A stretch of DNA of 58,865 nucleotides from Nanobdellota archaeon (GTDB lineage Archaea; Nanobdellota; Nanobdellia; Woesearchaeales; GW2011-AR9). Every line of letters begins with the position of its first letter. Positions within the stretch are counted from its first letter, which is position 1. A model generated the notes under the pieces. That model made no database searches, was not told where the DNA came from, and worked only from the letters and a program-made list of their open reading frames with translations. The translations under genes were made by a program, and so were the position numbers. Positions 9,260-58,859 of the stretch are shown here, piece after piece. The stretch covers positions 1 to 58,865 of the forward strand of contig JBBSWB010000041.1 of assembly GCA_038046465.1 (NCBI GenBank), read 5' to 3'.

Positions 9260-9329
9260 GTAATTATTTTTTAATATTATTCTTTTCCAGTTCAATAATT
9301 CTTATAAACTGATAAAACTAAAATAGATT

Positions 9330-9614
9330 ATGGTAAAATATTGTGGCCCCTTAGAACACCCAGATTATTATTGCCCCATAGACGGAAGAAAATTACGTTC
9401 TGAAGCAATTATGGATGGGGAATTTACTAGGGGGGAAAGATTCAAGTGTTATAATTGCGGTGCTGATTATTCTACTAATCCAGAAAAACACCCTCAAGAA
9501 GCACGCCTATATTTACGTGAAATAGCCGCAAAAATAAAGAAAATAAAAACAAAAGAGCTTCAACCATTAGAGAAAATTATTGAAGCAGCAGGAGAAAACG
9601 GACTTCTTAAATAA
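9330..9614 (+). CDS. Zinc-ribbon-like small protein (94 aa)
   Basis: Cys pairs YCGP..YYCPIDG and CYNCG. Function unknown. Confidence 0.45.
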   Translation: MVKYCGPLEHPDYYCPIDGRKLRSEAIMDGEFTRGERFKCYNCGADYSTNPEKHPQEARLYLREIAAKIKKIKTKELQPLEKIIEAAGENGLLK

Positions 9615-9631
9615 ATAAAGATTAATACTTT

Positions 9632-9907
9632 CTAATGTTTTGGAGAACCATAATATCTTTTTTTAACTTTATTGTATGGAAGATTGATGTATATTTTTGA
9701 ATCTTTCTCATAAATGGCTTTGCAAGCTTCGGCAAGTCTAAGCCAATCATAAATCTGGTCCCGGCTTAAATCTCCAAACTGACGCGATAGGCGATTAACA
9801 AAAAAAGTTTTCTCTAATCCCCCACTCTTATCATAATTCTCGTGCATCCAACCATGTGCTGTAACAATGGTGCCAATATTTAGGTGTGCCATTATAGATT
9901 TACACAA
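9632..9907 (-). CDS. Hypothetical protein (91 aa)
   Basis: Intact ORF with no motif. The start could instead be the internal Met of MAHLNIG. Confidence 0.4.
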   Translation of the reverse strand: MCKSIMAHLNIGTIVTAHGWMHENYDKSGGLEKTFFVNRLSRQFGDLSRDQIYDWLRLAEACKAIYEKDSKIYINLPYNKVKKRYYGSPKH

Positions 9908-9941
9908 CTAATTTCTTTTTAAAGATTTCTGTCCTAAAAGA

Positions 9942-10082
9942 TGGACTTGGCGGGACTTTCGTGCAGCAAAATCTTTTTTGCTTGGTGGGCTTCAGCCCGC
10001 CGTACTTGCCTAGATTGCTGGCATTCGAACCCGCAGCCTTTCACATGCGAAGCGAACGCGATAGCCGTTTCGCCACAAGCCC
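9942..10082 (-). tRNA. tRNA-Ala (anticodon CGC) with a 68-nt intron in the T-loop (intron 9956..10023, position 59/60)
   Basis: Manual fold of the minus strand: GGGCTTG TG GCGA AACGGCTA TCGC G TTCGC TTCGCAT GTGAA AGGCT GCGGG TTCGAA [68 nt] T CCCGC CAAGTCC A. G3:U70 is present, and a helix-bulge-helix-bulge-helix motif sits at the junction. Confidence 0.85.
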
Positions 10083-10144
10083 AACAGAAGCTAAGAAGTA
10101 ATAAACAATATTTAAAGATAGTTGTGTTATAAGAATAATAAAAC

Positions 10145-10459
10145 CTAAATCTCAACCATCTCAATCTCAATATTCAATCCTTCGGGGATAGGAACTCTCA
10201 TCACTAATCTTAAAGTTCGTTCATCAGCAGAAAGATCAATTAAGCGCTTATGTACCCGCATTTCATATCTCTCCCAGGTAGCTTTACCTTCTCCACAAGG
10301 GGATTTACGAGTAGTAACTTTTAATTTTTTAGTAGGCAAAGGAATAGGTCCATGAAGTTTTACACCAGTCTTATCGGCAATATCTTTAATATCAGAACAA
10401 ATTTTATTGATCTTATCAATTTCCGTACTGGCTAATTTTATTCTTGCTCTTTGCGTCAT
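10145..10459 (-). CDS. rps10: 30S ribosomal protein S10
   Basis: Typical S10 sequence (RIKL.S.....L......I.....G....GPIPLPTK), downstream of EF-1alpha as in other archaea. Confidence 0.95.
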
Positions 10460-38367: not shown

Positions 38368-38486
38368 GCCCCAGTAGCTTAGTGGCTATAGCACCTGACT
38401 TGTAGCCAACTATCTGCTATGTTTCCAACGAAATATAAGCATAGTAAGATATCAGGAGATCGGGAGTTCAACTCTCCCCTGGGGCT
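38368..38486 (+). tRNA. tRNA-Thr (anticodon TGT) with a canonical 46-nt intron at 37/38 (38405..38450)
   Basis: GCCCCAG TA GCTT AGTGGCTA TAGC A CCTGA CTTGTA [46 nt] A TCAGG AGATC GGGAG TTCAACT CTCCC CTGGGGC T. Central BHB helix CTTG/TAAG with 3-nt bulges. Confidence 0.9.
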
Positions 38487-38513: not shown

Positions 38514-38633
38514 GGCTTGTCCAGAATGAAAAACATTTGTATACTGGGGCACGGCGCGATTATAAATTTACTTCGTAAATTTATGCGCCTCCATTGGCAC
38601 CAGTATACAAATTAAGGGTATTCTAGACAAGCC
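38514..38633. other. 120-nt rod-like imperfect palindrome E immediately downstream of tRNA-Thr
   Basis: Nested arms are GGCTTGTC/GACAAGCC, AGAAT/ATTCT, TTTGTATACTGG/CCAGTATACAAA, GGCGC/GCGCC and ATAAATTTAC/GTAAATTTAT. Confidence 0.5.
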
Positions 38634-48530: not shown

Positions 48531-48548
48531 TTCACGCCAGCGTCGCAT
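48531..48548 (+). pseudogene. Orphan fragment of the tRNA-Ser 5' end (5-nt leader plus first 13 nt)
   Basis: TTCAC GCCAGCGTCGCAT is identical to 44815-44832 and 48595-48612, but no tRNA body follows. Confidence 0.6.
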
Positions 48549-48599
48549 CCACAGAGAAATAATTTCCCTGGGCGCGACTCAGCATTCACTCACGTTCAC

Positions 48600-48749
48600 G
48601 CCAGCGTCGCATAATCCGGTATTGCGGCAGTCTCGAACAGATCTTTACAATCGAAAGAAAACTGCTCCCTCTGGGATTCTCGGTTCAAACGAGAAACTGC
48701 GTTTCTTACCCAGAAAAACGCAGTTTTTCTGAATGTCCGAGCGCTGGCG
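48600..48749 (+). tRNA. tRNA-Ser (anticodon CGA) with two introns: 22 nt in the anticodon loop (about 48638..48659) and 46 nt in the T-loop at 59/60 (48690..48735)
   Basis: GCCAGCG TC GCA TAATCCGGTAT TGC G GCAGT CTCGAA [22] A ACTGC, variable arm TCCC-TCT-GGGA, then CTCGG TTCAAA [46] T CCGAG CGCTGGC G. A T-run follows. Confidence 0.8.
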
Positions 48750-52004: not shown

Positions 52005-52586
52005 ATGAATAATAATCTAAAGATACTAAAACTGTTTGTGGACAACAAAGACAAAACCTTCACCATAAAGAAGGCAGCCGAAGCACTAAAAATAAATTAT
52101 AAAATTGTTTACGAAGAGATAACAGAATTGGAAAAAGAAAAATTAATTTCAATAACCAGGCAGGGAAATGCTAAAGTCTGTGTTTTTAATTACCAATACC
52201 ACAGTAAGATTGTTGAAATTGAAGAAATCCGAAAGCAGGAATTATTTAAAAATAAAGATTTGAAATTGATTTATAACCGAATCAAAGAAGTTAAAAACCC
52301 TTTTTATTGCTTAGTTCTTTTCGGCTCTTATGCCAACAAAACTAATCAAAAAGGGTCTGATATTGATCTATGCTTAATTACTGACAACTCTAAAATTAAC
52401 CGCCAAGTTCAGTCGATTTTAAGTATAACTCCTTTGCCAATTCACCTGCAAGAATTTAGTTCGAAGCAGTTTTTGCTCATGCTCAAAAGCAAAGAAGTTA
52501 ATGTTGGCAACGAAATAGTTAAAAATAATGTCCTTTTATACGACATGGAAGCATTTTACGAATTGATAAACAATGTTAAGCAATGA
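52005..52586 (+). CDS. wHTH-fused minimal nucleotidyltransferase (MNT-type antitoxin-like)
   Basis: LFGSYANKTNQKGSDIDLCLI NTase signature, with an N-terminal wHTH. Confidence 0.75.
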   Translation: MNNNLKILKLFVDNKDKTFTIKKAAEALKINYKIVYEEITELEKEKLISITRQGNAKVCVFNYQYHSKIVEIEEIRKQELFKNKDLKLIYNRIKEVKNPFYCLVLFGSYANKTNQKGSDIDLCLITDNSKINRQVQSILSITPLPIHLQEFSSKQFLLMLKSKEVNVGNEIVKNNVLLYDMEAFYELINNVKQ

Positions 52587-53094
52587 ACGGATAAAAGAAG
52601 CACAACAGCAGGTTTCAACCTATCTTGCAGAAGGTTTGCTCAAAAAAGAAAAGGTTAAGAGAATAGTCTTGGAAACTTATCTTAAAAACCATCGGGAATC
52701 TTTGTTAGTGGCCAGGAAACTATTTGATGAAAAAATATCTAATCTTTGGGTGGTGGTCATCAGTTATTATTCTATGTTCTACCTAGCCAATGCTTTGTTG
52801 TATAAAATAGGATATAAAGTCGGCTCAAAAGTTGCACACAAAGTTACTTCAGATGCGCTGATTGTTTTAGTAAGGAATAAGCTGAAAGACCAGCTCATTG
52901 AAGATTATGAATTGGCCAGCAATGAAGCCTTAACCCTTTCTGATAATCTGTTGCAAAATTTTGATTTGGAAAGAGCAAAGCGTTCTGTCTTCCAGTACGA
53001 ATCGACGGAGGAAATAAAAGCTGCTAAAGCAAAAACTTCTTTAGATCGGGCGGAAGAATTCAGTGTTAAAATAGAAAAACTGCTCCTAGACTGA
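52573..53094 (+). CDS. HEPN-domain protein (partner of 52005..52586)
   Basis: All-helical, 173 aa. It overlaps the upstream NTase gene by 14 nt. It resembles 53798..54271 (YYSMFY/YYSMYH, conserved His). Confidence 0.6.
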   Translation: MLSNERIKEAQQQVSTYLAEGLLKKEKVKRIVLETYLKNHRESLLVARKLFDEKISNLWVVVISYYSMFYLANALLYKIGYKVGSKVAHKVTSDALIVLVRNKLKDQLIEDYELASNEALTLSDNLLQNFDLERAKRSVFQYESTEEIKAAKAKTSLDRAEEFSVKIEKLLLD

Positions 53095-53131
53095 AAGAAT
53101 GATTTAAATATTCTAAAATAATTCTAATCTT

Positions 53132-53794
53132 ATGATAAAAGCAGTGCTATTTGATTTGGATAATACTTTAATAGATTTTATGGTGATGAAAAGACGGTGC
53201 ACTGAAGCAGCCGTTTCGGCGATGATTGATGCTGGTTTAGGAATGAGTAAGAAAAAAGCGTATACTTTAATGTTTGAGCTGTATGAACGGCACGGCATTG
53301 AAGACAGCACCATTTATCAGAAATTTCTGCAGAAATATGTTCACAAAGTTGATTATAAAATATTATCTGCCGGAGTAGTGGCCTATAGAAAGGTTCGGGC
53401 GGCGCAGTTGGTTCCCTATCCGCAGGTGCGGGCGACGTTAATTGCTTTGAAAAGTAAAGGGTTAAAATTAGGAGTAGTTTCCGATGCGCCTAAGATGCAG
53501 GCCTGGTTAAGATTAACCGAAATGAGTTTAGTAGAATTCTTTGATGTGGTGTTGGGCTTTGAAGATACCGGCGAATTAAAACCATCTTCAGCTCCGTTTA
53601 AGAAAGCGTTGTTACGAATGAAAGTTAAAGCTTCTGAAGTAGTGTTTATTGGTGACAATCCGCATCGGGATATTGTTGGCGCAAAGAAAGTAGGCATGAA
53701 GACGGTGTTGGCTAAGTATGGCGGATGTAAGAGTAAGAGCGGAGCGGATTGGGAGATTAAGGGAATTGGAGAGTTATTGAAGATAGTGAAATAA
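53132..53794 (+). CDS. HAD-superfamily hydrolase (subfamily IA-like)
   Basis: DLDNTL motif I, S/T motif II (VVSDAP), and K...GDN..D motifs III/IV. Confidence 0.85.
   Translation: MIKAVLFDLDNTLIDFMVMKRRCTEAAVSAMIDAGLGMSKKKAYTLMFELYERHGIEDSTIYQKFLQKYVHKVDYKILSAGVVAYRKVRAAQLVPYPQVRATLIALKSKGLKLGVVSDAPKMQAWLRLTEMSLVEFFDVVLGFEDTGELKPSSAPFKKALLRMKVKASEVVFIGDNPHRDIVGAKKVGMKTVLAKYGGCKSKSGADWEIKGIGELLKIVK
53746..53790 (+). repeat. Direct repeat, copy 1 (functional 3' end of the HAD gene)
   Basis: GGATTGGGAGATTAAGGGAATTGGAGAGTTATTGAAGATAGTGAA recurs, decayed, at 54836-54886. Confidence 0.8.
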
Positions 53795-53797
53795 AAT

Positions 53798-54271
53798 CTA
53801 TTGTAATCTCTTTACAGTTTTAGAACGATATTCCTTAATTTTGTCTTCAGTTAGGTTTTCTGTAAAATTATTAATCTCAATAATAAACTCCTCTGCAATA
53901 TGTATTGATTTCATTACTTCTTCTTTGGTAATAGCAAAGTCAATGTAATACTGTTTATCAACCCTTTCGCTTTTTGCTTTAGAAATCACCGCATTATCCA
54001 AATTAAAAATTTCTTTAAGCAGTATTATGGCGGCAGTGTGGTTTTCGCATTTGATTCCGCTGCGGAAGAGCAGAGATAAAAGCGCGTGATACATAGAGTA
54101 ATAAGCTAAAGCAACAGAATCCTTTAGATTGCCAATCTTTAGAAGAGCCTTGGCTGAAGAAAGTGATTCCTGTGCGCGCTGTAGATAAGCTATCCTCATT
54201 TCTTCGCTTGGTTCAACTACCTGCAGCTTCTTTTCCTTGGCTAATTTATGCAAAAAATCTGTTTTTCTCAT
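53798..54271 (-). CDS. HEPN-domain protein
   Basis: Helical, 157 aa, with a YYSMYHA...ENHTAAI pattern. It overlaps the upstream NTase by 26 nt. Confidence 0.65.
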   Translation of the reverse strand: MRKTDFLHKLAKEKKLQVVEPSEEMRIAYLQRAQESLSSAKALLKIGNLKDSVALAYYSMYHALLSLLFRSGIKCENHTAAIILLKEIFNLDNAVISKAKSERVDKQYYIDFAITKEEVMKSIHIAEEFIIEINNFTENLTEDKIKEYRSKTVKRLQ

Positions 54272-54803
54272 AATATACTTCTATCCCTTTGATGAGGAGA
54301 TGGTTCTTTTCAATTTCTTTAATCAAAAGATTGCTTGGATCGTAAAGGCCGATTTTTACGCTGAGTTTGGAATCAAGCAGCTCTACTTCTTCTTTGAGTT
54401 TTTTATCTTTGGTTTCTAAGTAAAGATCTATATCGCTGTCTTTATGCGCAGTTCCTTTGGCATAAGAGCCAAAGATTAGGGCCAAAGTAATTTTAGGATT
54501 TTTTCTGATGTTTTCAGTAATTAAACGCAACCGAGGATATTTTTGCAGCGCTTCTTTAAGTTTGTGCAACTCTGCAATATAAGCATATTGTTTTGCCTCT
54601 AGGGTTTTTTTAAGATGAAAAACTTTGTTTTTACCTTCCATTTGGAAATCTGCAGCATTTTCTTGATATAATTCCTTGGTTTTTCTGGCAATAGTGGTCT
54701 GGTTGGTGTTGAGTTCTTTGGCCAGCCCTCTCACGTGGTTCTCTTTTTTTAACAGCGCTTCCACAATTTGTATTTTGTAATCTTTTTGTGACATATGTAA
54801 CAT
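54246..54803 (-). CDS. wHTH-fused minimal nucleotidyltransferase (MNT-type)
   Basis: IFGSYAKGTAHKDSDIDLYLE NTase signature, with an N-terminal wHTH. Confidence 0.75.
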   Translation of the reverse strand: MLHMSQKDYKIQIVEALLKKENHVRGLAKELNTNQTTIARKTKELYQENAADFQMEGKNKVFHLKKTLEAKQYAYIAELHKLKEALQKYPRLRLITENIRKNPKITLALIFGSYAKGTAHKDSDIDLYLETKDKKLKEEVELLDSKLSVKIGLYDPSNLLIKEIEKNHLLIKGIEVYYEKNRFFA

Positions 54804-54835
54804 AATTATGACAAAGTATATAAAGGTTTGGATAT

Positions 54836-54886
54836 GGATTGGCTGGGAGATTAAGGGAGTTGTGAAGAGTTATTGAAGATAGTGAA
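54836..54886 (+). repeat. Direct repeat, copy 2 (decayed relic of the HAD gene 3' end)
   Basis: GGATTGGCTGGGAGATTAAGGGAGTTGTGAAGAGTTATTGAAGATAGTGAAGAG. Indels break the HAD reading frame. Confidence 0.8.
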
Positions 54887-54945
54887 GAGTTAAGTAGGCA
54901 TACCTTTATAAATATCTATACCTTTTAGACATCAGTTGATATAAA

Positions 54946-55257
54946 ATGGGAACTCAAACAGCACAATACCAAGATACTGAACTTCAAATTGTAAAAAGCC
55001 ATAAAACTAAGCGTTATCCTAATTTGAATACTGTTCTGATGGTCGAAAATTTTCTTAAAGCAAAGAGAGATTTGCCGCTAAAACTTGCAGAAATTAAAAA
55101 ACAATTGCCTAAAAAAATAATGCATGAGACTTTAAAAATAATTTTAGAATACCTTTGGAAAAGCGGCAAAATAATTTATGGCCCGAAAGGAGTGCAATGG
55201 ATTTATGTTGAACCGGAACATTTAAGAAAGATGCTCGAAAACACCTTAGAAATATAA
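54946..55257 (+). CDS. Putative antitoxin/wHTH protein upstream of the RelE-like toxin
   Basis: 103 aa. Its stop lies 1 nt before the toxin start. Confidence 0.45.
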   Translation: MGTQTAQYQDTELQIVKSHKTKRYPNLNTVLMVENFLKAKRDLPLKLAEIKKQLPKKIMHETLKIILEYLWKSGKIIYGPKGVQWIYVEPEHLRKMLENTLEI

Positions 55258-55258
55258 A

Positions 55259-55600
55259 ATGTATTTGGGCAAAGATGTTCGGATTCTGTTAAAAGGTTCT
55301 GCTAAAGATAGTTTTTTAGAATTAAAGAAGCGCCAGGATAAAGAAGCACAGATCTTGATAAAATCTGTGGAAAGAATAATTCTTATTTTAAAAGATAACC
55401 CTCTTTATGGCGATCCTATTAATAAAACTTTAATTCCTGAAGTATTCCGGAAAGAAGGAATTAAAAACCTTTATCGAGTGGAATTATCTAATTATTGGAG
55501 AATGATTTATACCATTGAAGGGAGTAATGTAGAAATATTTTTATTTGTCTTAAGTCTGGTTGATCATAAAAAATATAATAAAATGTTTGGGTATAAATAA
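55259..55600 (+). CDS. RelE/ParE-superfamily toxin-like protein
   Basis: C-terminal LYRVELSNYWRMIYTIEGSNVEIFLFVLSLVDHKKY matches the RelE-fold pattern (..R...YR.IY.I......I.....H..Y). Confidence 0.6.
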   Translation: MYLGKDVRILLKGSAKDSFLELKKRQDKEAQILIKSVERIILILKDNPLYGDPINKTLIPEVFRKEGIKNLYRVELSNYWRMIYTIEGSNVEIFLFVLSLVDHKKYNKMFGYK

Positions 55601-55641
55601 ATTGTAATTAATTATATAAACTTCAACTTCTTTTCTAATAT

Positions 55642-56187
55642 ATGCTTCAATCTTTGGAAGAAAAACAGGAATTATTGCAAAAGTCAGAAGTTAGCCTGTG
55701 GATTGACCACTATGATGATATTTTTTCTGACTTTGATCCCCGCCCTTATTCCCAGCGCGGCCTTTCCGATGACTTTTTGATTGAAGCTAAAAAATTTATT
55801 AAAGAAAAGGCTTCGGGAAGCTTTGAATTAATTTTTTTAGTACCTGAACTGATGAGAAAACCTGAATCTGAAGGTATTATCAAGAAACGCCTGCGTGAGC
55901 ATTTTAAAAAACACCACCTGTTATTAAAACATGACATGGTTAAAATAAAAAAGAAAGGGATTGCTTTAGCTGCGGTGGGTATGCTGCTGATGTTTGCTGC
56001 TTATTTGGTAACTACGGTTGAACAGAATATGCTGATGAATTTAATTTTTATAATTCTTGAACCGAGCGGATGGTTTCTGGCTTTTATAGGGATGGAGCAT
56101 ATCTTCTATGAAACTAAAGGGAAAACACCTGATTTAGAATTCTACACCAAGATGAGTAGATGCGAGATTAAGTTCAGGAGTTATTGA
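55642..56187 (+). CDS. Membrane protein (two C-terminal TM helices)
   Basis: 181 aa with hydrophobic segments GIALAAVGMLLMFAAYLV and LIFIILEPSGWFLAFIGM. Confidence 0.55.
   Translation: MLQSLEEKQELLQKSEVSLWIDHYDDIFSDFDPRPYSQRGLSDDFLIEAKKFIKEKASGSFELIFLVPELMRKPESEGIIKKRLREHFKKHHLLLKHDMVKIKKKGIALAAVGMLLMFAAYLVTTVEQNMLMNLIFIILEPSGWFLAFIGMEHIFYETKGKTPDLEFYTKMSRCEIKFRSY
56121..56187 (+). repeat. Direct repeat, copy 1 (3' end of membrane protein gene)
   Basis: GAAAACACC.GATTTAGA...GATGAGTAGATGCGAGATTAAGTTCAGGAGTTATTGA recurs at 58061-58120 with a 7-nt indel. Confidence 0.85.
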
Positions 56188-56218
56188 TTTGAAAAGAAGG
56201 TTTGTATTTATAAGAGGT

Positions 56219-57058
56219 TTATTTCTTTTCTATTTTCTTCTTTTTAGTTAAATCCAAGTAATTTTCAGGAGACACTATTTTTATTCCAAAAGTGGTTTCC
56301 GCGTCTTTCCTGGCTCGTCCGGCTACTTCACCGCCTTCTTTTGCTGCATCTAAGTTTTCTGTAAATCCTTGTGCATCCTTCTTGCGTGTAGCCTCAGTAC
56401 TGAGCCTTTCTCCTAACATAGAAAAAATGAGCTCCAAATCATTCATATGGTCGCGTAGATTTTGATTCTTAAACTTTGGATCTAAACCTTTAATTTCTTT
56501 ATGCTCTTTTATAGGTATTCCGAAAGTTGCTTTACTAATTTCATTGGTAAGAATAGCAAATTCTCGCTGTTCTTCAACGCCTCTTTTTTTCCATTCATCA
56601 GTAAGCTCTTGCCGAATGGCAATTCCTCTAAGCCGTTTGTCAATCCAATCTTTAGGATAGCCTTTGAGTTCATAATATCCTTTGGCTCGGTCTTGGGCTA
56701 ATTCTGGATTTTCTATTTCTTGAATTCGTTCGTAGCCTACTTGGGCTAACCATTGCTTAAATGGTTCAGCTTTCTTAGAAGGGATGGATTGAATTATTCT
56801 AAACATATTTTTGGTGTTAGCACAATCTGTAAGATAGGATTTACCATCAGAAGCAAGTAATTTCAGTTGGTTACAATTTGTAACCACCTCGCTTCCTTCC
56901 TCAGTGAGGCGGTATTTAAGTACCTTCCAATAATTTCTAGGGTTATCACTATCACTTAATACTCTAATTACATCAACTACTGAAAACCACCACTCTTCGT
57001 TGCGCCAAACCCTGCGGATGCTTTTTCCTTCAAAAACAGCTAATGAATTATTTTCCAT
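56219..57058 (-). CDS. Bro-N domain / DinD-like (DNA-damage-inducible protein D-like) protein
   Basis: N-terminal FEGKSIRRVWRNEEWWFSVVDVIRVL is a Bro-N pattern common in viruses and prophages. Confidence 0.65.
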   Translation of the reverse strand: MENNSLAVFEGKSIRRVWRNEEWWFSVVDVIRVLSDSDNPRNYWKVLKYRLTEEGSEVVTNCNQLKLLASDGKSYLTDCANTKNMFRIIQSIPSKKAEPFKQWLAQVGYERIQEIENPELAQDRAKGYYELKGYPKDWIDKRLRGIAIRQELTDEWKKRGVEEQREFAILTNEISKATFGIPIKEHKEIKGLDPKFKNQNLRDHMNDLELIFSMLGERLSTEATRKKDAQGFTENLDAAKEGGEVAGRARKDAETTFGIKIVSPENYLDLTKKKKIEKK

Positions 57059-57168
57059 GTTATTTCTGCAACTTAGAAGCTATATAAACCTTACGTGCAC
57101 CTGTCCAGTGGGTGTGTGGTTTAGATTAGAACATAATGTTTCTGTTGGCATAATGGTTATTAAGATAA

Positions 57169-57399
57169 TTGATGTGCTCAGTAATTATGAAGAAAACACG
57201 AGAAAAATATCTTTCTTTGCCAAAAAAAGTAGAAATAAAACCAGAAACATTAGGTTTGCCGGCTAATTTGCGTGAAATTTTTGGAAGTAAAAACTGGGAT
57301 GAACTAAGTAAAAAGAACCAAACTTATTTTATTTTTGGGCAATTGCTTAAGGAAGGTAATTTCATTTTGACTGGAGAAGGGAAAGTGGTGAGAATTTGA
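57169..57399 (+). CDS. Hypothetical small protein (76 aa)
   Basis: Intact ORF overlapping the next ORF by 4 nt. Confidence 0.4.
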   Translation: MMCSVIMKKTREKYLSLPKKVEIKPETLGLPANLREIFGSKNWDELSKKNQTYFIFGQLLKEGNFILTGEGKVVRI

Positions 57400-58019
57400 G
57401 CATATGCTGGATTAATCATTTTCCGGATGAAGCGCCATTGATTCTGATTAACGATACTGGGCTTTATTTTGAAAAAATATTGGCATATGAAAAAAAGTTT
57501 ATAGAAAAAATATTTAAACTAGATTTAGAAAAAGATATCATAAAATATCCTGCTTACGAAGAAGCTTTGAAAATAATTCCAGAGATAATCAAAACTAAAA
57601 AGATGGTTATTTTAGGCCCAACCCAACATAAAGAAATTGGGTTTTTCTCTACTTATTTCCCAATAGTTAAATTCCCGGTTGTAATGGACTTTATTATTAA
57701 AGAGTTTGTTCATGACCAAATGGCAACTTATGATGAAGAAAAAATATTAGCTGCTGCAGAAAAATCAGATCGATACAAATGGCTGACTTTATTTGTTTTT
57801 GGAAGAATACATCAAGAGCTTAAGTTAAATCCTTCTTATTTATACACTAATGGTTCAATTGAAACGGTTTGGCAATATTATGATTTAAACGGATTGTCAT
57901 TGAAAGAAACAAAAAAATATCTTTTGTTAGCCAAAGAATTCGATAACAAAATATTTTTGGAGTTGGCAGCCAGCGAACTGCTGGGAAAGGAAACTCCTGC
58001 AGTTAAACTAATAAGATAA
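57396..58019 (+). CDS. Hypothetical protein (207 aa, TTG start)
   Basis: Intact ORF coupled to the upstream gene. No motif recognised. Confidence 0.45.
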   Translation: MSICWINHFPDEAPLILINDTGLYFEKILAYEKKFIEKIFKLDLEKDIIKYPAYEEALKIIPEIIKTKKMVILGPTQHKEIGFFSTYFPIVKFPVVMDFIIKEFVHDQMATYDEEKILAAAEKSDRYKWLTLFVFGRIHQELKLNPSYLYTNGSIETVWQYYDLNGLSLKETKKYLLLAKEFDNKIFLELAASELLGKETPAVKLIR

Positions 58020-58020
58020 T

Positions 58021-58058
58021 TTTATACAATAATTGTACCTATTTATACAATAATTGTA
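58021..58058. repeat. Tandem 17-mer TTTATACAATAATTGTA x2 (21-nt period), each containing the near-palindrome TACAATAATTGTA
   Basis: Read directly from the sequence, immediately left of direct-repeat copy 2. Confidence 0.8.
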
Positions 58059-58060
58059 TA

Positions 58061-58120
58061 GAAAACACCCGATTTAGAGTCGAGATGAGTAGATGCGAGA
58101 TTAAGTTCAGGAGTTATTGA
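58061..58120 (+). repeat. Direct repeat, copy 2 (relic of the membrane protein gene 3' end)
   Basis: See 56121..56187. Confidence 0.85.
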
Positions 58121-58228
58121 GTGAACCTGGAAGTAAACCAGATTGACCAGTCTAAAAAGAGTACGATAATAGGTGTGCGGGAGCTCTAATCTTCCAAAAC
58201 TTAATTTCCTCATCGCAACATTTATAAA

Positions 58229-58247
58229 CGTTACCAAATTGGTAACG
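58229..58247. promoter_or_regulatory. Perfect palindrome CGTTACCAA-A-TTGGTAACG abutting a TATA box (TTTATAAA 58221-58228)
   Basis: Read directly from the sequence, just upstream of the third HTH-NTase gene. Confidence 0.5.
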
Positions 58248-58259
58248 ATTGTTATTAAA

Positions 58260-58859
58260 ATGATGCCATTAATCAAAACGGGATATTGGAAAATTATGCA
58301 GCTCTTTTATACTAATAAGGTTACAAAGATGCATCTTAGGGAGATTTCCAGGAAAGCCAAGCTTCATGCGCCTAGCACGACCACTTTTTTAAAATCCCTG
58401 GAAAAAGATGGGGTATTGAAGTCAGAAAAAGATGGGAATCAGAAAAAATACTTCTTAAAACTAAATTATAAAACTTATGCTGTCTTTCAGCTCTTTGACT
58501 TAGAAAAACTTAATGCTCTCCCTAACATACGTAAGAATGCAATAAAATATTTCCTTGATTACCTCAAAGAAAAGCCTTTAATTGCTTTTGTTTTTGGTTC
58601 AACTGCAAAAGGAACCTTTAAAGAAGATTCCGATATAGATATCTTTATAATAACTAACTCTAAAATTAATACTGAAGAAGCTGAGAAGCATGCCGAAGCA
58701 TTGACTGGGATAAGGATCAGCACCTTCCAGATGAGGTTAGAACCTTTTTTGAAAGAAATAAAACTTAAAGAAGATCCAGTTATCCAGTCTGCCATAGCTT
58801 CCGGCTATCCGGTGCTGAATAATTTATATTATTACGAGATACTTTACAATGGACCTTAA
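58260..58859 (+). CDS. wHTH-fused minimal nucleotidyltransferase (third MNT-type gene)
   Basis: VFGSTAKGTFKEDSDIDIFIIT signature. The ATG at 58260 or 58296 is preferred over the track start at 58173, which would run through the promoter and palindrome. An overlapping ATG at 58850 opens a further ORF cut by the window edge, possibly the HEPN partner. Confidence 0.7.
   Translation: MMPLIKTGYWKIMQLFYTNKVTKMHLREISRKAKLHAPSTTTFLKSLEKDGVLKSEKDGNQKKYFLKLNYKTYAVFQLFDLEKLNALPNIRKNAIKYFLDYLKEKPLIAFVFGSTAKGTFKEDSDIDIFIITNSKINTEEAEKHAEALTGIRISTFQMRLEPFLKEIKLKEDPVIQSAIASGYPVLNNLYYYEILYNGP

Follow-up and report, generated by a model that had tools for sequence, protein, structure and literature searches.

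Does the interrupted tRNA sequence at positions 9942-10082 of contig JBBSWB010000041.1 belong to a working gene and, if so, how is it to be read? We addressed this question in the 58,865-nt stretch of Nanobdellota archaeon DNA that carries it (assembly GCA_038046465.1), called here the window. From the sequence alone, the original prediction had proposed a minus-strand tRNA-Ala(CGC) gene split inside its T-loop, between tRNA positions 59 and 60, by an intron of the bulge-helix-bulge (BHB) type. This proposal was borne out. From four findings, namely the cloverleaf obtained on splicing, the folding of the T arm with the intron, an ortholog in synteny and 22 distinct metagenomic tRNA-Ala genes interrupted at the same site, we conclude that the locus is very probably a working tRNA-Ala(CGC) gene that carries a BHB-type intron of 68 nt at 59/60.

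Excision of a 68-nt insert restores a canonical tRNA-Ala(CGC)

The anatomy of the gene can be read directly from its letters, all on the minus strand. Exon 1 (10082-10024, 59 nt, tRNA positions 1-59), recognised in the sequence, in the spliced ARAGORN cloverleaf and through a partial Rfam match, comprises the acceptor 5′ strand, D arm, CGC anticodon arm, variable loop, T-stem 5′ strand and U54-A59. It reads GGGCUUG-UG-GCGA-AACGGCUA-UCGC-G-UUCGC-UUCGCAU-GUGAA-AGGCU-GCGGG-UUCGAA. It is followed by the 68-nt intron (10023-9956), whose excision between tRNA positions 59 and 60 restores a perfect cloverleaf, and by exon 2 (9955-9942, 14 nt, tRNA positions 60-73; U-CCCGC-CAAGUCC-A), which supplies U60, the T-stem 3′ strand CCCGC, the acceptor 3′ strand CAAGUCC with U70, and the discriminator A73. 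The 3′-terminal CCA is not encoded. The predicted exon junction is ...GGGUUCGAA/UCCCGCC..., that is GGGUUCGAA/UCCCGCCAAGUCCA(CCA), the slash marking here and below a point of cutting or joining. G+C content is 60% in the exons, 51.5% in the intron and 36% over the window.

When 10082-10024 is joined to 9955-9942, ARAGORN returns a perfect 73-nt tRNA-Ala(CGC) cloverleaf. The acceptor has 7 bp (GGGCUUG/CAAGUCC) with G3:U70 and discriminator A73, the D stem 4 bp with A14, G18 and G19 present, the anticodon and T stems 5 bp each, and UUCGAAU forms the T-loop. In neither exon is a stem pair or a conserved base disrupted, so that removal of the insert gives a canonical cloverleaf with all conserved bases, as is characteristic of a BHB intron, and the G3:U70 pair, A73 and an NGC anticodon identify the product as tRNA-Ala. 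It had been claimed that the cloverleaf is complete only after removal of 9956-10023, that the acceptor carries G3:U70 and that splicing regenerates the 7-nt T-loop UUCGAAU. The ARAGORN drawing of the spliced product agrees with all three, the T-loop being re-formed by the join at A59/U60; the unspliced form is defective (see below).

The T arm and the intron form a mildly relaxed splice motif

Local folding was performed on the T arm and insert only, as an unconstrained minimum-energy fold. In this fold, and in a consensus fold of two sequences (the window and the ortholog L099 described below), U54 U55 C56 G57 (10029-10026) pairs with CGAA of the intron (9961-9958) to form the central helix of the motif. 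In the local fold this 4-bp UUCG/CGAA helix is directly stacked on the T stem. The 3′ splice-site bulge, A-G/U60 (9957-9955, 3 nt), is unpaired in every fold, and the 3′ cut would fall after G9956 (intron G68). On the opposite strand, the 5′ splice-site bulge A58 A59/U, where U is intron position 1 (10025-10023), appears in the folds as a 2-nt AA bulge; BHB symmetry would place the 5′ cut after A59. The sequence alone also permits 60/61, because intron and exon 2 both start with U, and 59/60 is chosen over it by the same symmetry.

The intron is closed by a helix between (U)GC(C)AGCAA (10023-10015) and UUGCUGC(A) (9969-9962), found in a suboptimal fold within 0.4 kcal/mol and in the consensus with L099. 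Its order is U1-A9962, G-C, C-G, a bulged C and then AGCAA/UUGCU; this helix and a three-hairpin multiloop are alternatives 0.4 kcal/mol apart. A9962, left out of the earlier drawing, sits between the inner helix and CGAA. Either U1 (10023) pairs with it, which leaves the 2-nt AA bulge, or U1 is flipped out, which gives a 3x1 loop.

The locus thus has the constituents of a BHB: a 4-bp helix, bulges AGU and AA(U) on opposite strands, and the T stem as exon-side helix. It departs from the strict 3-4-3 form of the helix-bulge-helix-bulge-helix motif (hBHBh′), since the 3′ bulge has 3 nt and the 5′ bulge has 2 nt or is a 3x1 loop. The motif is therefore a near-canonical, mildly relaxed BHB. The original prediction had called it a textbook motif, a description that holds for the T stem, the UUCG/CGAA helix and the 3-nt AGU bulge but not for the 5′ bulge, nor for a drawing that omits A9962. 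The stable hairpin that it had placed within the intron, GGCGGGC-UGAA-GCCCACC (10001-9984), is present, with the correction that its stem consists of 6 bp and one C.A mismatch. This hairpin is absent from the intron of L099.

Exon pairing is conserved across the insert in an ortholog and in metagenomic relatives

L099 (handles of this form denote collected loci) is another Hainich contig, with S10 87.5% and NusG 91% identical to those of the window and the tRNA again lying between the two genes. Its exons differ from those of the window by a 1-nt indel in the D-loop and, in the anticodon stem, by G-C in place of G-U. At the same site it carries an intron of 51 nt, which has the same ends, TGC...GCACGAAAG (UGC...GCACGAAAG in the RNA), and an unrelated interior. 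The consensus fold of window and L099 keeps the T stem, the central helix, the 3-nt 3′ bulge, the 2-nt AA bulge and the closing pairs U-A/G-C/C-G. BLAST, ARAGORN and Rfam searches of the region that follows S10 in 80 GTDB relatives detected no tRNA-Ala; for Rfam this negative is weak, since a large search at E = 1 misses the gene of the window as well. The position of tRNA-Ala next to S10 is lineage-specific, and only L099 shares it.

Relatives elsewhere were collected from metagenomes with the pattern GGGTTCGAA-N{40,70}-CGAANN-TCCC-N6-TCCA. The letters prescribed are those of the T-loop, of the 3′ BHB half and of an alanine-type end, UCCA; the whole of exon 1 before G51, the intron and positions 64-69 may take any sequence. 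The pattern matched 44 loci, 27 of which (22 distinct) become full tRNA-Ala genes once the insert is deleted. The 22 distinct genes have anticodons CGC, UGC or GGC and 59/60 introns of 46-75 nt, and several carry an additional intron at 37/38 or in the D-loop. Of the remaining matches, one is an ordinary tRNA, and the others arose by chance in bacterial DNA rich in GC or are probably genes with several introns. The helices described above form in unconstrained folds of 20 of the 22 distinct sequences, the window's own being one of the 22.

Covariation was examined in 13 sequences, the window and 12 single-intron homologs. Their cloverleaf is 99.6% paired, and the acceptor and T-stem helices, which span the intron, are 100% paired. 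Double-sided changes occur at five pairs (5:68, 6:67, 7:66, 49:65 and 50:64), while G3:U70 and A73 are invariant. In slid-register controls pairing drops to 28-52% in all registers. The match between the exons goes beyond chance, because positions 64-69 of exon 2 are unconstrained by the pattern and yet covary with exon 1. Conservation in homologs, as expected of a BHB intron, is thus observed in L099, in the 22 metagenomic genes and in the covariation. A permutation in which 3′ exons were swapped and scored with ARAGORN was uninformative: 81 of 201 swaps passed, because tRNA-Ala acceptors are alike and ARAGORN is tolerant. It was replaced by pair counting and a reversed-sequence control.

Two observations concern individual members of this collection. 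A near-identical 75-nt 59/60 intron is found in tRNA-Ala(GGC) of L133 and in tRNA-Ala(UGC) of L114, which suggests either that a paralog was duplicated and switched its anticodon or that the intron was transferred. L120/L137 correspond to the tRNA-Ala(CGC) of L128 with an extra D-loop intron, and are mislabelled tRNA-Pro by ARAGORN.

Alternative readings of the locus

Could the DNA be read without splicing? On unspliced DNA, ARAGORN reports a 71-nt tRNA-Ala(cgc) at 10011-10081, and the Rfam tRNA model aligns 10082-10011 end to end with 23.6 bits; were this contiguous form the real tRNA, the downstream 3′ exon would be coincidental. The score nevertheless lies under the gathering score of 29, and the locus is reported by Rfam neither at the gathering threshold nor in a whole-window E-value search. 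The 71-nt cloverleaf is defective, with a C.U mismatch at 3:70 that loses the alanine identity pair and a T stem of merely 3-4 bp, whereas at a distance of exactly 68 nt there is another 3′ half that is perfect and that, in homologs, covaries with the 5′ half. We give the unspliced reading next to no chance of being correct. The expectation that default finders would miss the gene holds for Rfam, where it is sub-threshold, but not for ARAGORN, which calls the locus with the right anticodon and the wrong 3′ half. Two spurious open reading frames (ORFs) had also been noted over the locus; they are indeed present, at 9934-10170 (minus) and 9941-10132 (plus), and public assemblies that contain this sequence annotate neither of them as a gene. 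A loose resemblance between the 3′ exon and the start of the insert (its first 13 nt, TGCCAGCAATCTA) explains why both programs can force an unspliced cloverleaf. That resemblance would also fit a dead or decaying tRNA gene, split by an insertion such as a mobile-element remnant that duplicated the 3′ end, with fortuitous BHB pairing. Such a history would agree with the intact tRNAs of L055/56, L078 and L080, which have an exact 3′-end repeat 87-99 nt downstream, with the S10-NusG gap being a variable slot among relatives, and with an uncompensated T-stem change in L094. Yet the similarity between TGCCAGCAATCTA and the 3′ exon is no better than that of mismatched intron/exon pairs (score 3, in the null range), and the idea that the intron start is a decayed 3′-exon copy or an attL-attR duplication was rejected, the corresponding score being 14 in L055, L078 and L080. 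The exons, moreover, are flawless and covary across the insert, the sequence is identical in several independent assemblies, and the architecture is kept in a diverged ortholog with another intron interior and in dozens of other tRNA genes. A dead gene is accordingly very unlikely.

The insert might instead have a role of its own, either kept in the mature RNA as an expanded T-loop arm or, once excised, functional as a circular or guide RNA. Excised archaeal BHB introns can circularise, and some act as guides. In addition, the GC-rich hairpin and a G+C content above the window average (51.5% against 36%) would fit such a role. On the other hand, the interior is unconserved even in the closest ortholog, only the splice-motif ends being kept. 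The intron has no C box, and the Rfam search found in it no C/D-box or other known RNA. Retention would enlarge the T-loop and abolish its interaction with the D-loop, which is otherwise preserved in the exons. We judge a retained or functional insert extremely unlikely. A group I or group II self-splicing intron was considered and rejected, as the insert has only 68 nt and no Rfam intron family matches positions 9800-10250 at E up to 10.

Our preferred reading remains that of a working tRNA-Ala(CGC) gene interrupted at 59/60, against which several points weigh. The 5′ bulge is not of the strict 3-nt form. The whole 141-nt precursor folds no better than shuffled sequences (z = -1.2), and its full-length unconstrained minimum (-50.8 kcal/mol) is not the cloverleaf-plus-BHB structure, which lies energetically near it (-48.8 kcal/mol). 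One population variant of the same locus (L094:20-160, a contig of 3x coverage) has an uncompensated C50-to-A change in the T stem. In the 58.9-kb window, no EndA or RtcB Pfam domain was found among ORFs of at least 110 aa. The analysis covered one window of the genome, which may hold a second intact tRNA-Ala(CGC) gene elsewhere. Finally, we infer transcription, the exact cut sites, the enzymes and splicing in vivo.

A model for expression and splicing

A TATA-box-like element, TTTAAATA (10116-10109, minus strand), lies about 30 nt upstream of tRNA position 1 and downstream of the S10 stop codon; comparable A/T boxes are found at equal distance in L099, L102, L109, L131 and L136. TTTAAATA is a putative promoter. 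Immediately after the discriminator A73 comes a T-rich tract, UCUUUU (9941-9936, minus strand), which is likely an archaeal terminator, and T-runs trail many homologs. With TTTAAATA upstream and UCUUUU after A73, tRNA-Ala would form its own transcription unit.

Based on these elements and on the folds, the following model can be proposed. The precursor would be transcribed from its own TATA-type promoter just downstream of S10. In the transcript, U54-G57 of the T-loop would pair with the intron CGAA, and the resulting 4-bp helix would stack on the T stem. This would present the 3′ splice site in the 3-nt bulge A-G/U60 and the 5′ site, A59/U, in a 2-3-nt bulge closed by the intron helix. EndA would recognise the T stem, the 4-bp helix and the bulges, and cut at A59/U1 and G68/U60. 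An RtcB-type ligase would then join the exons to give a tRNA with T-loop UUCGAAU, G3:U70 and A73, and CCA would be added after exon joining. A tblastn search for EndA over all collected loci found none, a weak negative, as the M. jannaschii query sequence was of uncertain accuracy.

Introns at 59/60 are frequent in related tRNA genes

How common this site is was estimated with a dedicated 59/60 finder. A candidate had to have the pair G53-C61 in its T stem, a loop containing TTCRA, an insert 8-140 nt long and, ending 2 nt ahead of N60, a stretch able to form 4 bp with bases 54-57; each spliced construct was confirmed by ARAGORN. The scan covered the T-loop site in 604 kb, made up of 80 S10-selected loci and the window. 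The yield was 27 distinct tRNA genes interrupted at 59/60; the same sequences reversed, used as a control, gave 0. These tRNAs belong to at least 8 isotypes, including Ser, Gly, Pro, Val, Glu, Ile, Phe and Leu, and often follow S10 immediately. By itself, ARAGORN had detected 39 tRNAs in the 80 S10-selected loci, and the share of detectable tRNA genes at S10 loci that have a 59/60 intron is ~40% (~25 of ~64). Introns in the T-loop at 59/60 are thus routine in the Woesearchaeota-type lineage; that 59/60 is a major, order-wide intron site of these DPANN archaea rather than a sporadic oddity is a tentative idea that we consider rather doubtful.

A CGAA-type complement to T54-57 is present in all 27 related introns. 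The arrangement YGAA + 2 nt/N60 recurs in every 59/60 motif, a regularity partly imposed by the search criteria, while the geometry at the 5′ site varies freely. Written as unpaired bases on the 5′ side over unpaired bases opposite, this geometry is 2/0 in 10 introns, 3/0 (the strict form) in 10 and 3/1 in 7; several introns have larger loops, and a few, the shortest, are without a closing helix. Enrichment of the closing helix is modest (87.5% versus 49% in shuffled introns, with a lenient 3-bp criterion). Because the 5′-bulge geometry is variable across the 59/60 introns of the lineage, a relaxed EndA specificity may be supposed. The original prediction had drawn a broad-specificity endonuclease from the non-canonical intron position. 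The idea is reasonable, but it is the relaxed, lineage-wide 5′ bulges that suggest it and not the 59/60 position alone.

All three tRNA genes of the window have introns, and two of the three have one at 59/60. Besides tRNA-Ala(CGC), the window holds one of the 27 genes revealed by the finder, an unannotated tRNA-Ser(CGA) with two introns at 48600-48749 (plus strand), missed by ARAGORN and Rfam. Its canonical intron has 22 nt (about 48638-48659); its 59/60 intron has 46 nt (48690-48735) and a strict 3-4-3 BHB with a UUCA/UGAA helix. The closing helix shows compensatory changes in three other species (L033, L043 and L018). An 18-nt direct repeat, TTCACGCCAGCGTCGCAT, occurs at 48531-48548 and 48595-48612 (plus strand). 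The second copy consists of the leader and the first 13 nt of tRNA-Ser, which leaves a stray tRNA 5′ end 64 nt upstream that could be a recombination or integration scar. The third gene is a tRNA-Thr(UGU) at 38368-38486 (plus strand; Rfam, 57.3 bits) with a canonical 46-nt intron at 37/38. Adjoining it is a sub-threshold match to GA-cis RNA at 38534-38596 (minus strand; 27.6 versus 34.7 bits).

Intact tRNAs with a downstream repeat of their 3′ end were also seen, in L055/L056 (~7828), L078 (~7617), L080 (~6212) and also L068; the tRNAs are of the types Ser, Ser, Lys and Ala. The repeat is the exact last 14 nt of the tRNA, placed 87-109 nt downstream. Such repeats may have been left, as att-like scars, by small elements that integrated, or may be 59/60 introns at an early stage. 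Introns at 59/60 could have had a lineage-specific origin in tRNA 3′-end duplications, and could benefit the lineage by protecting the part of the gene, T arm and 3′ end, that integrases target.

Host and genomic context

The order EF-2, EF-1alpha, S10 and tRNA-Ala on the minus strand, with convergent Spt5/NusG and SecE opposite, together with the identity of S10, places the host among the archaea. S10 is 85-91% identical to that of metagenome-assembled genomes (MAGs) labelled Woesearchaeota, Nanoarchaeota or Nanoarchaeia. Judged from its genes, the host is a Woesearchaeota-type DPANN archaeon. Identical DNA is found in Hainich groundwater assemblies from 0.1-um filter fractions, and the sequence of the tRNA-Ala locus is the same in several independent assemblies.

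The convergent S10-NusG gap (9260-10144 in the window) is a variable slot, from 160 nt to 2.4 kb in the 80 GTDB relatives; its content was compared with that in L002-L016 and L099. In the window it contains tRNA-Ala and two small ORFs (86 and 94 aa) with no Pfam match. It holds a lipoprotein-like ORF and the tRNA in L099, and the same lipoprotein-like ORF without a tRNA in L003 and L005. In L039, L041, L044, L045, L048, L067 and L073, other tRNAs with 59/60 introns directly follow S10.

Logan contigs from at least 6 sequencing runs (loci L082-L086 and L090-L093) end at precursor position 102 or begin at position 81, and overlap only in the 22-nt intron hairpin CGGCGGGCTGAAGCCCACCAAG (9981-10002, minus strand). 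ENA assemblies continue unbroken through this hairpin. As the breaks flank the hairpin on both sides and the ENA assemblies read through, a technical cause is favoured: the breaks probably arose during sequencing or assembly, at an inverted repeat rich in GGC, rather than from heterogeneity or a repeat. A second population variant of the locus (L083:2826-2928) has a change in the intron interior, CTAGGCAAG to CTATAAG. At the far end of the window, 52005-58859 carries nucleotidyltransferase/HEPN pairs, a ParE-like toxin ORF and a Bro-N domain protein, and looks rich in toxin-antitoxin or mobile elements.

Comparison with known systems

For annotation, the reading proposed here recovers a decoder tRNA that standard pipelines mis-call or miss. 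Incomplete DPANN tRNA sets have been taken to point to undetected disrupted genes (PMC5829648), and missed intron-split genes such as this one fit that published remark. In the same survey of DPANN genomes, which included a Woesearchaeota MAG, an alpha4-type EndA with an L3 insert was tied to raised tRNA gene disruption (PMC5829648). The relaxed 5′ bulges constrain what the splicing endonuclease of the lineage must accept. If the order-wide use of 59/60 were true, EndA would anchor on the T stem, the helix and the 3′ bulge, and would tolerate almost any 5′ site.

The closest described case is ARMAN-2 (Candidatus Micrarchaeum), whose pre-tRNA-Cys(GCA) and pre-tRNA-Pro(GGG) have introns at 59/60; that of pre-tRNA-Cys is cleaved in vitro by the organism's own epsilon2 EndA (Fujishima et al. 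2011, PMC3239211), and this substrate was reused in later work (PMC5829648). Both systems combine a DPANN host, a T-loop intron at 59/60 and a BHB-type motif to which the T stem and T-loop contribute, and ARMAN-2 has both strict (tRNA-Pro) and relaxed (tRNA-Cys) forms of the motif (PMC3239211). The present gene differs in belonging to another phylum-level lineage, in being a tRNA-Ala and in the length of its intron, 68 nt compared to 13 nt in ARMAN-2 tRNA-Cys. 

Non-canonical tRNA introns are also known in Thermoproteales, Crenarchaeota and Thaumarchaeota (PMC4033280, PMC4090602, PMC8450103). Like the one described here, they are short, with a BHB outside 37/38 and often relaxed bulges, and they are protein-spliced, as is proposed for the present intron; several introns per gene are frequent in those lineages as well, and the genes are missed by simple tRNA finders. 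Those lineages use an (alpha-beta)2 EndA with a Crenarchaea-specific loop, and their intron positions are scattered over the tRNA (PMC8450103), whereas the present scan covered the T-loop only. With the canonical intron at 37/38, represented in the window by tRNA-Thr, the tRNA-Ala intron shares a 4-bp helix between the loop and the 3′ end of the intron and splice sites in bulges on opposite strands. It differs from it in lying in the T-loop and in building the helix on the conserved U54-R57 instead of bases 32-35. The gene is best explained by ordinary archaeal protein-catalysed tRNA splicing at a non-canonical site; it is of an already described type and reveals no new mechanism.

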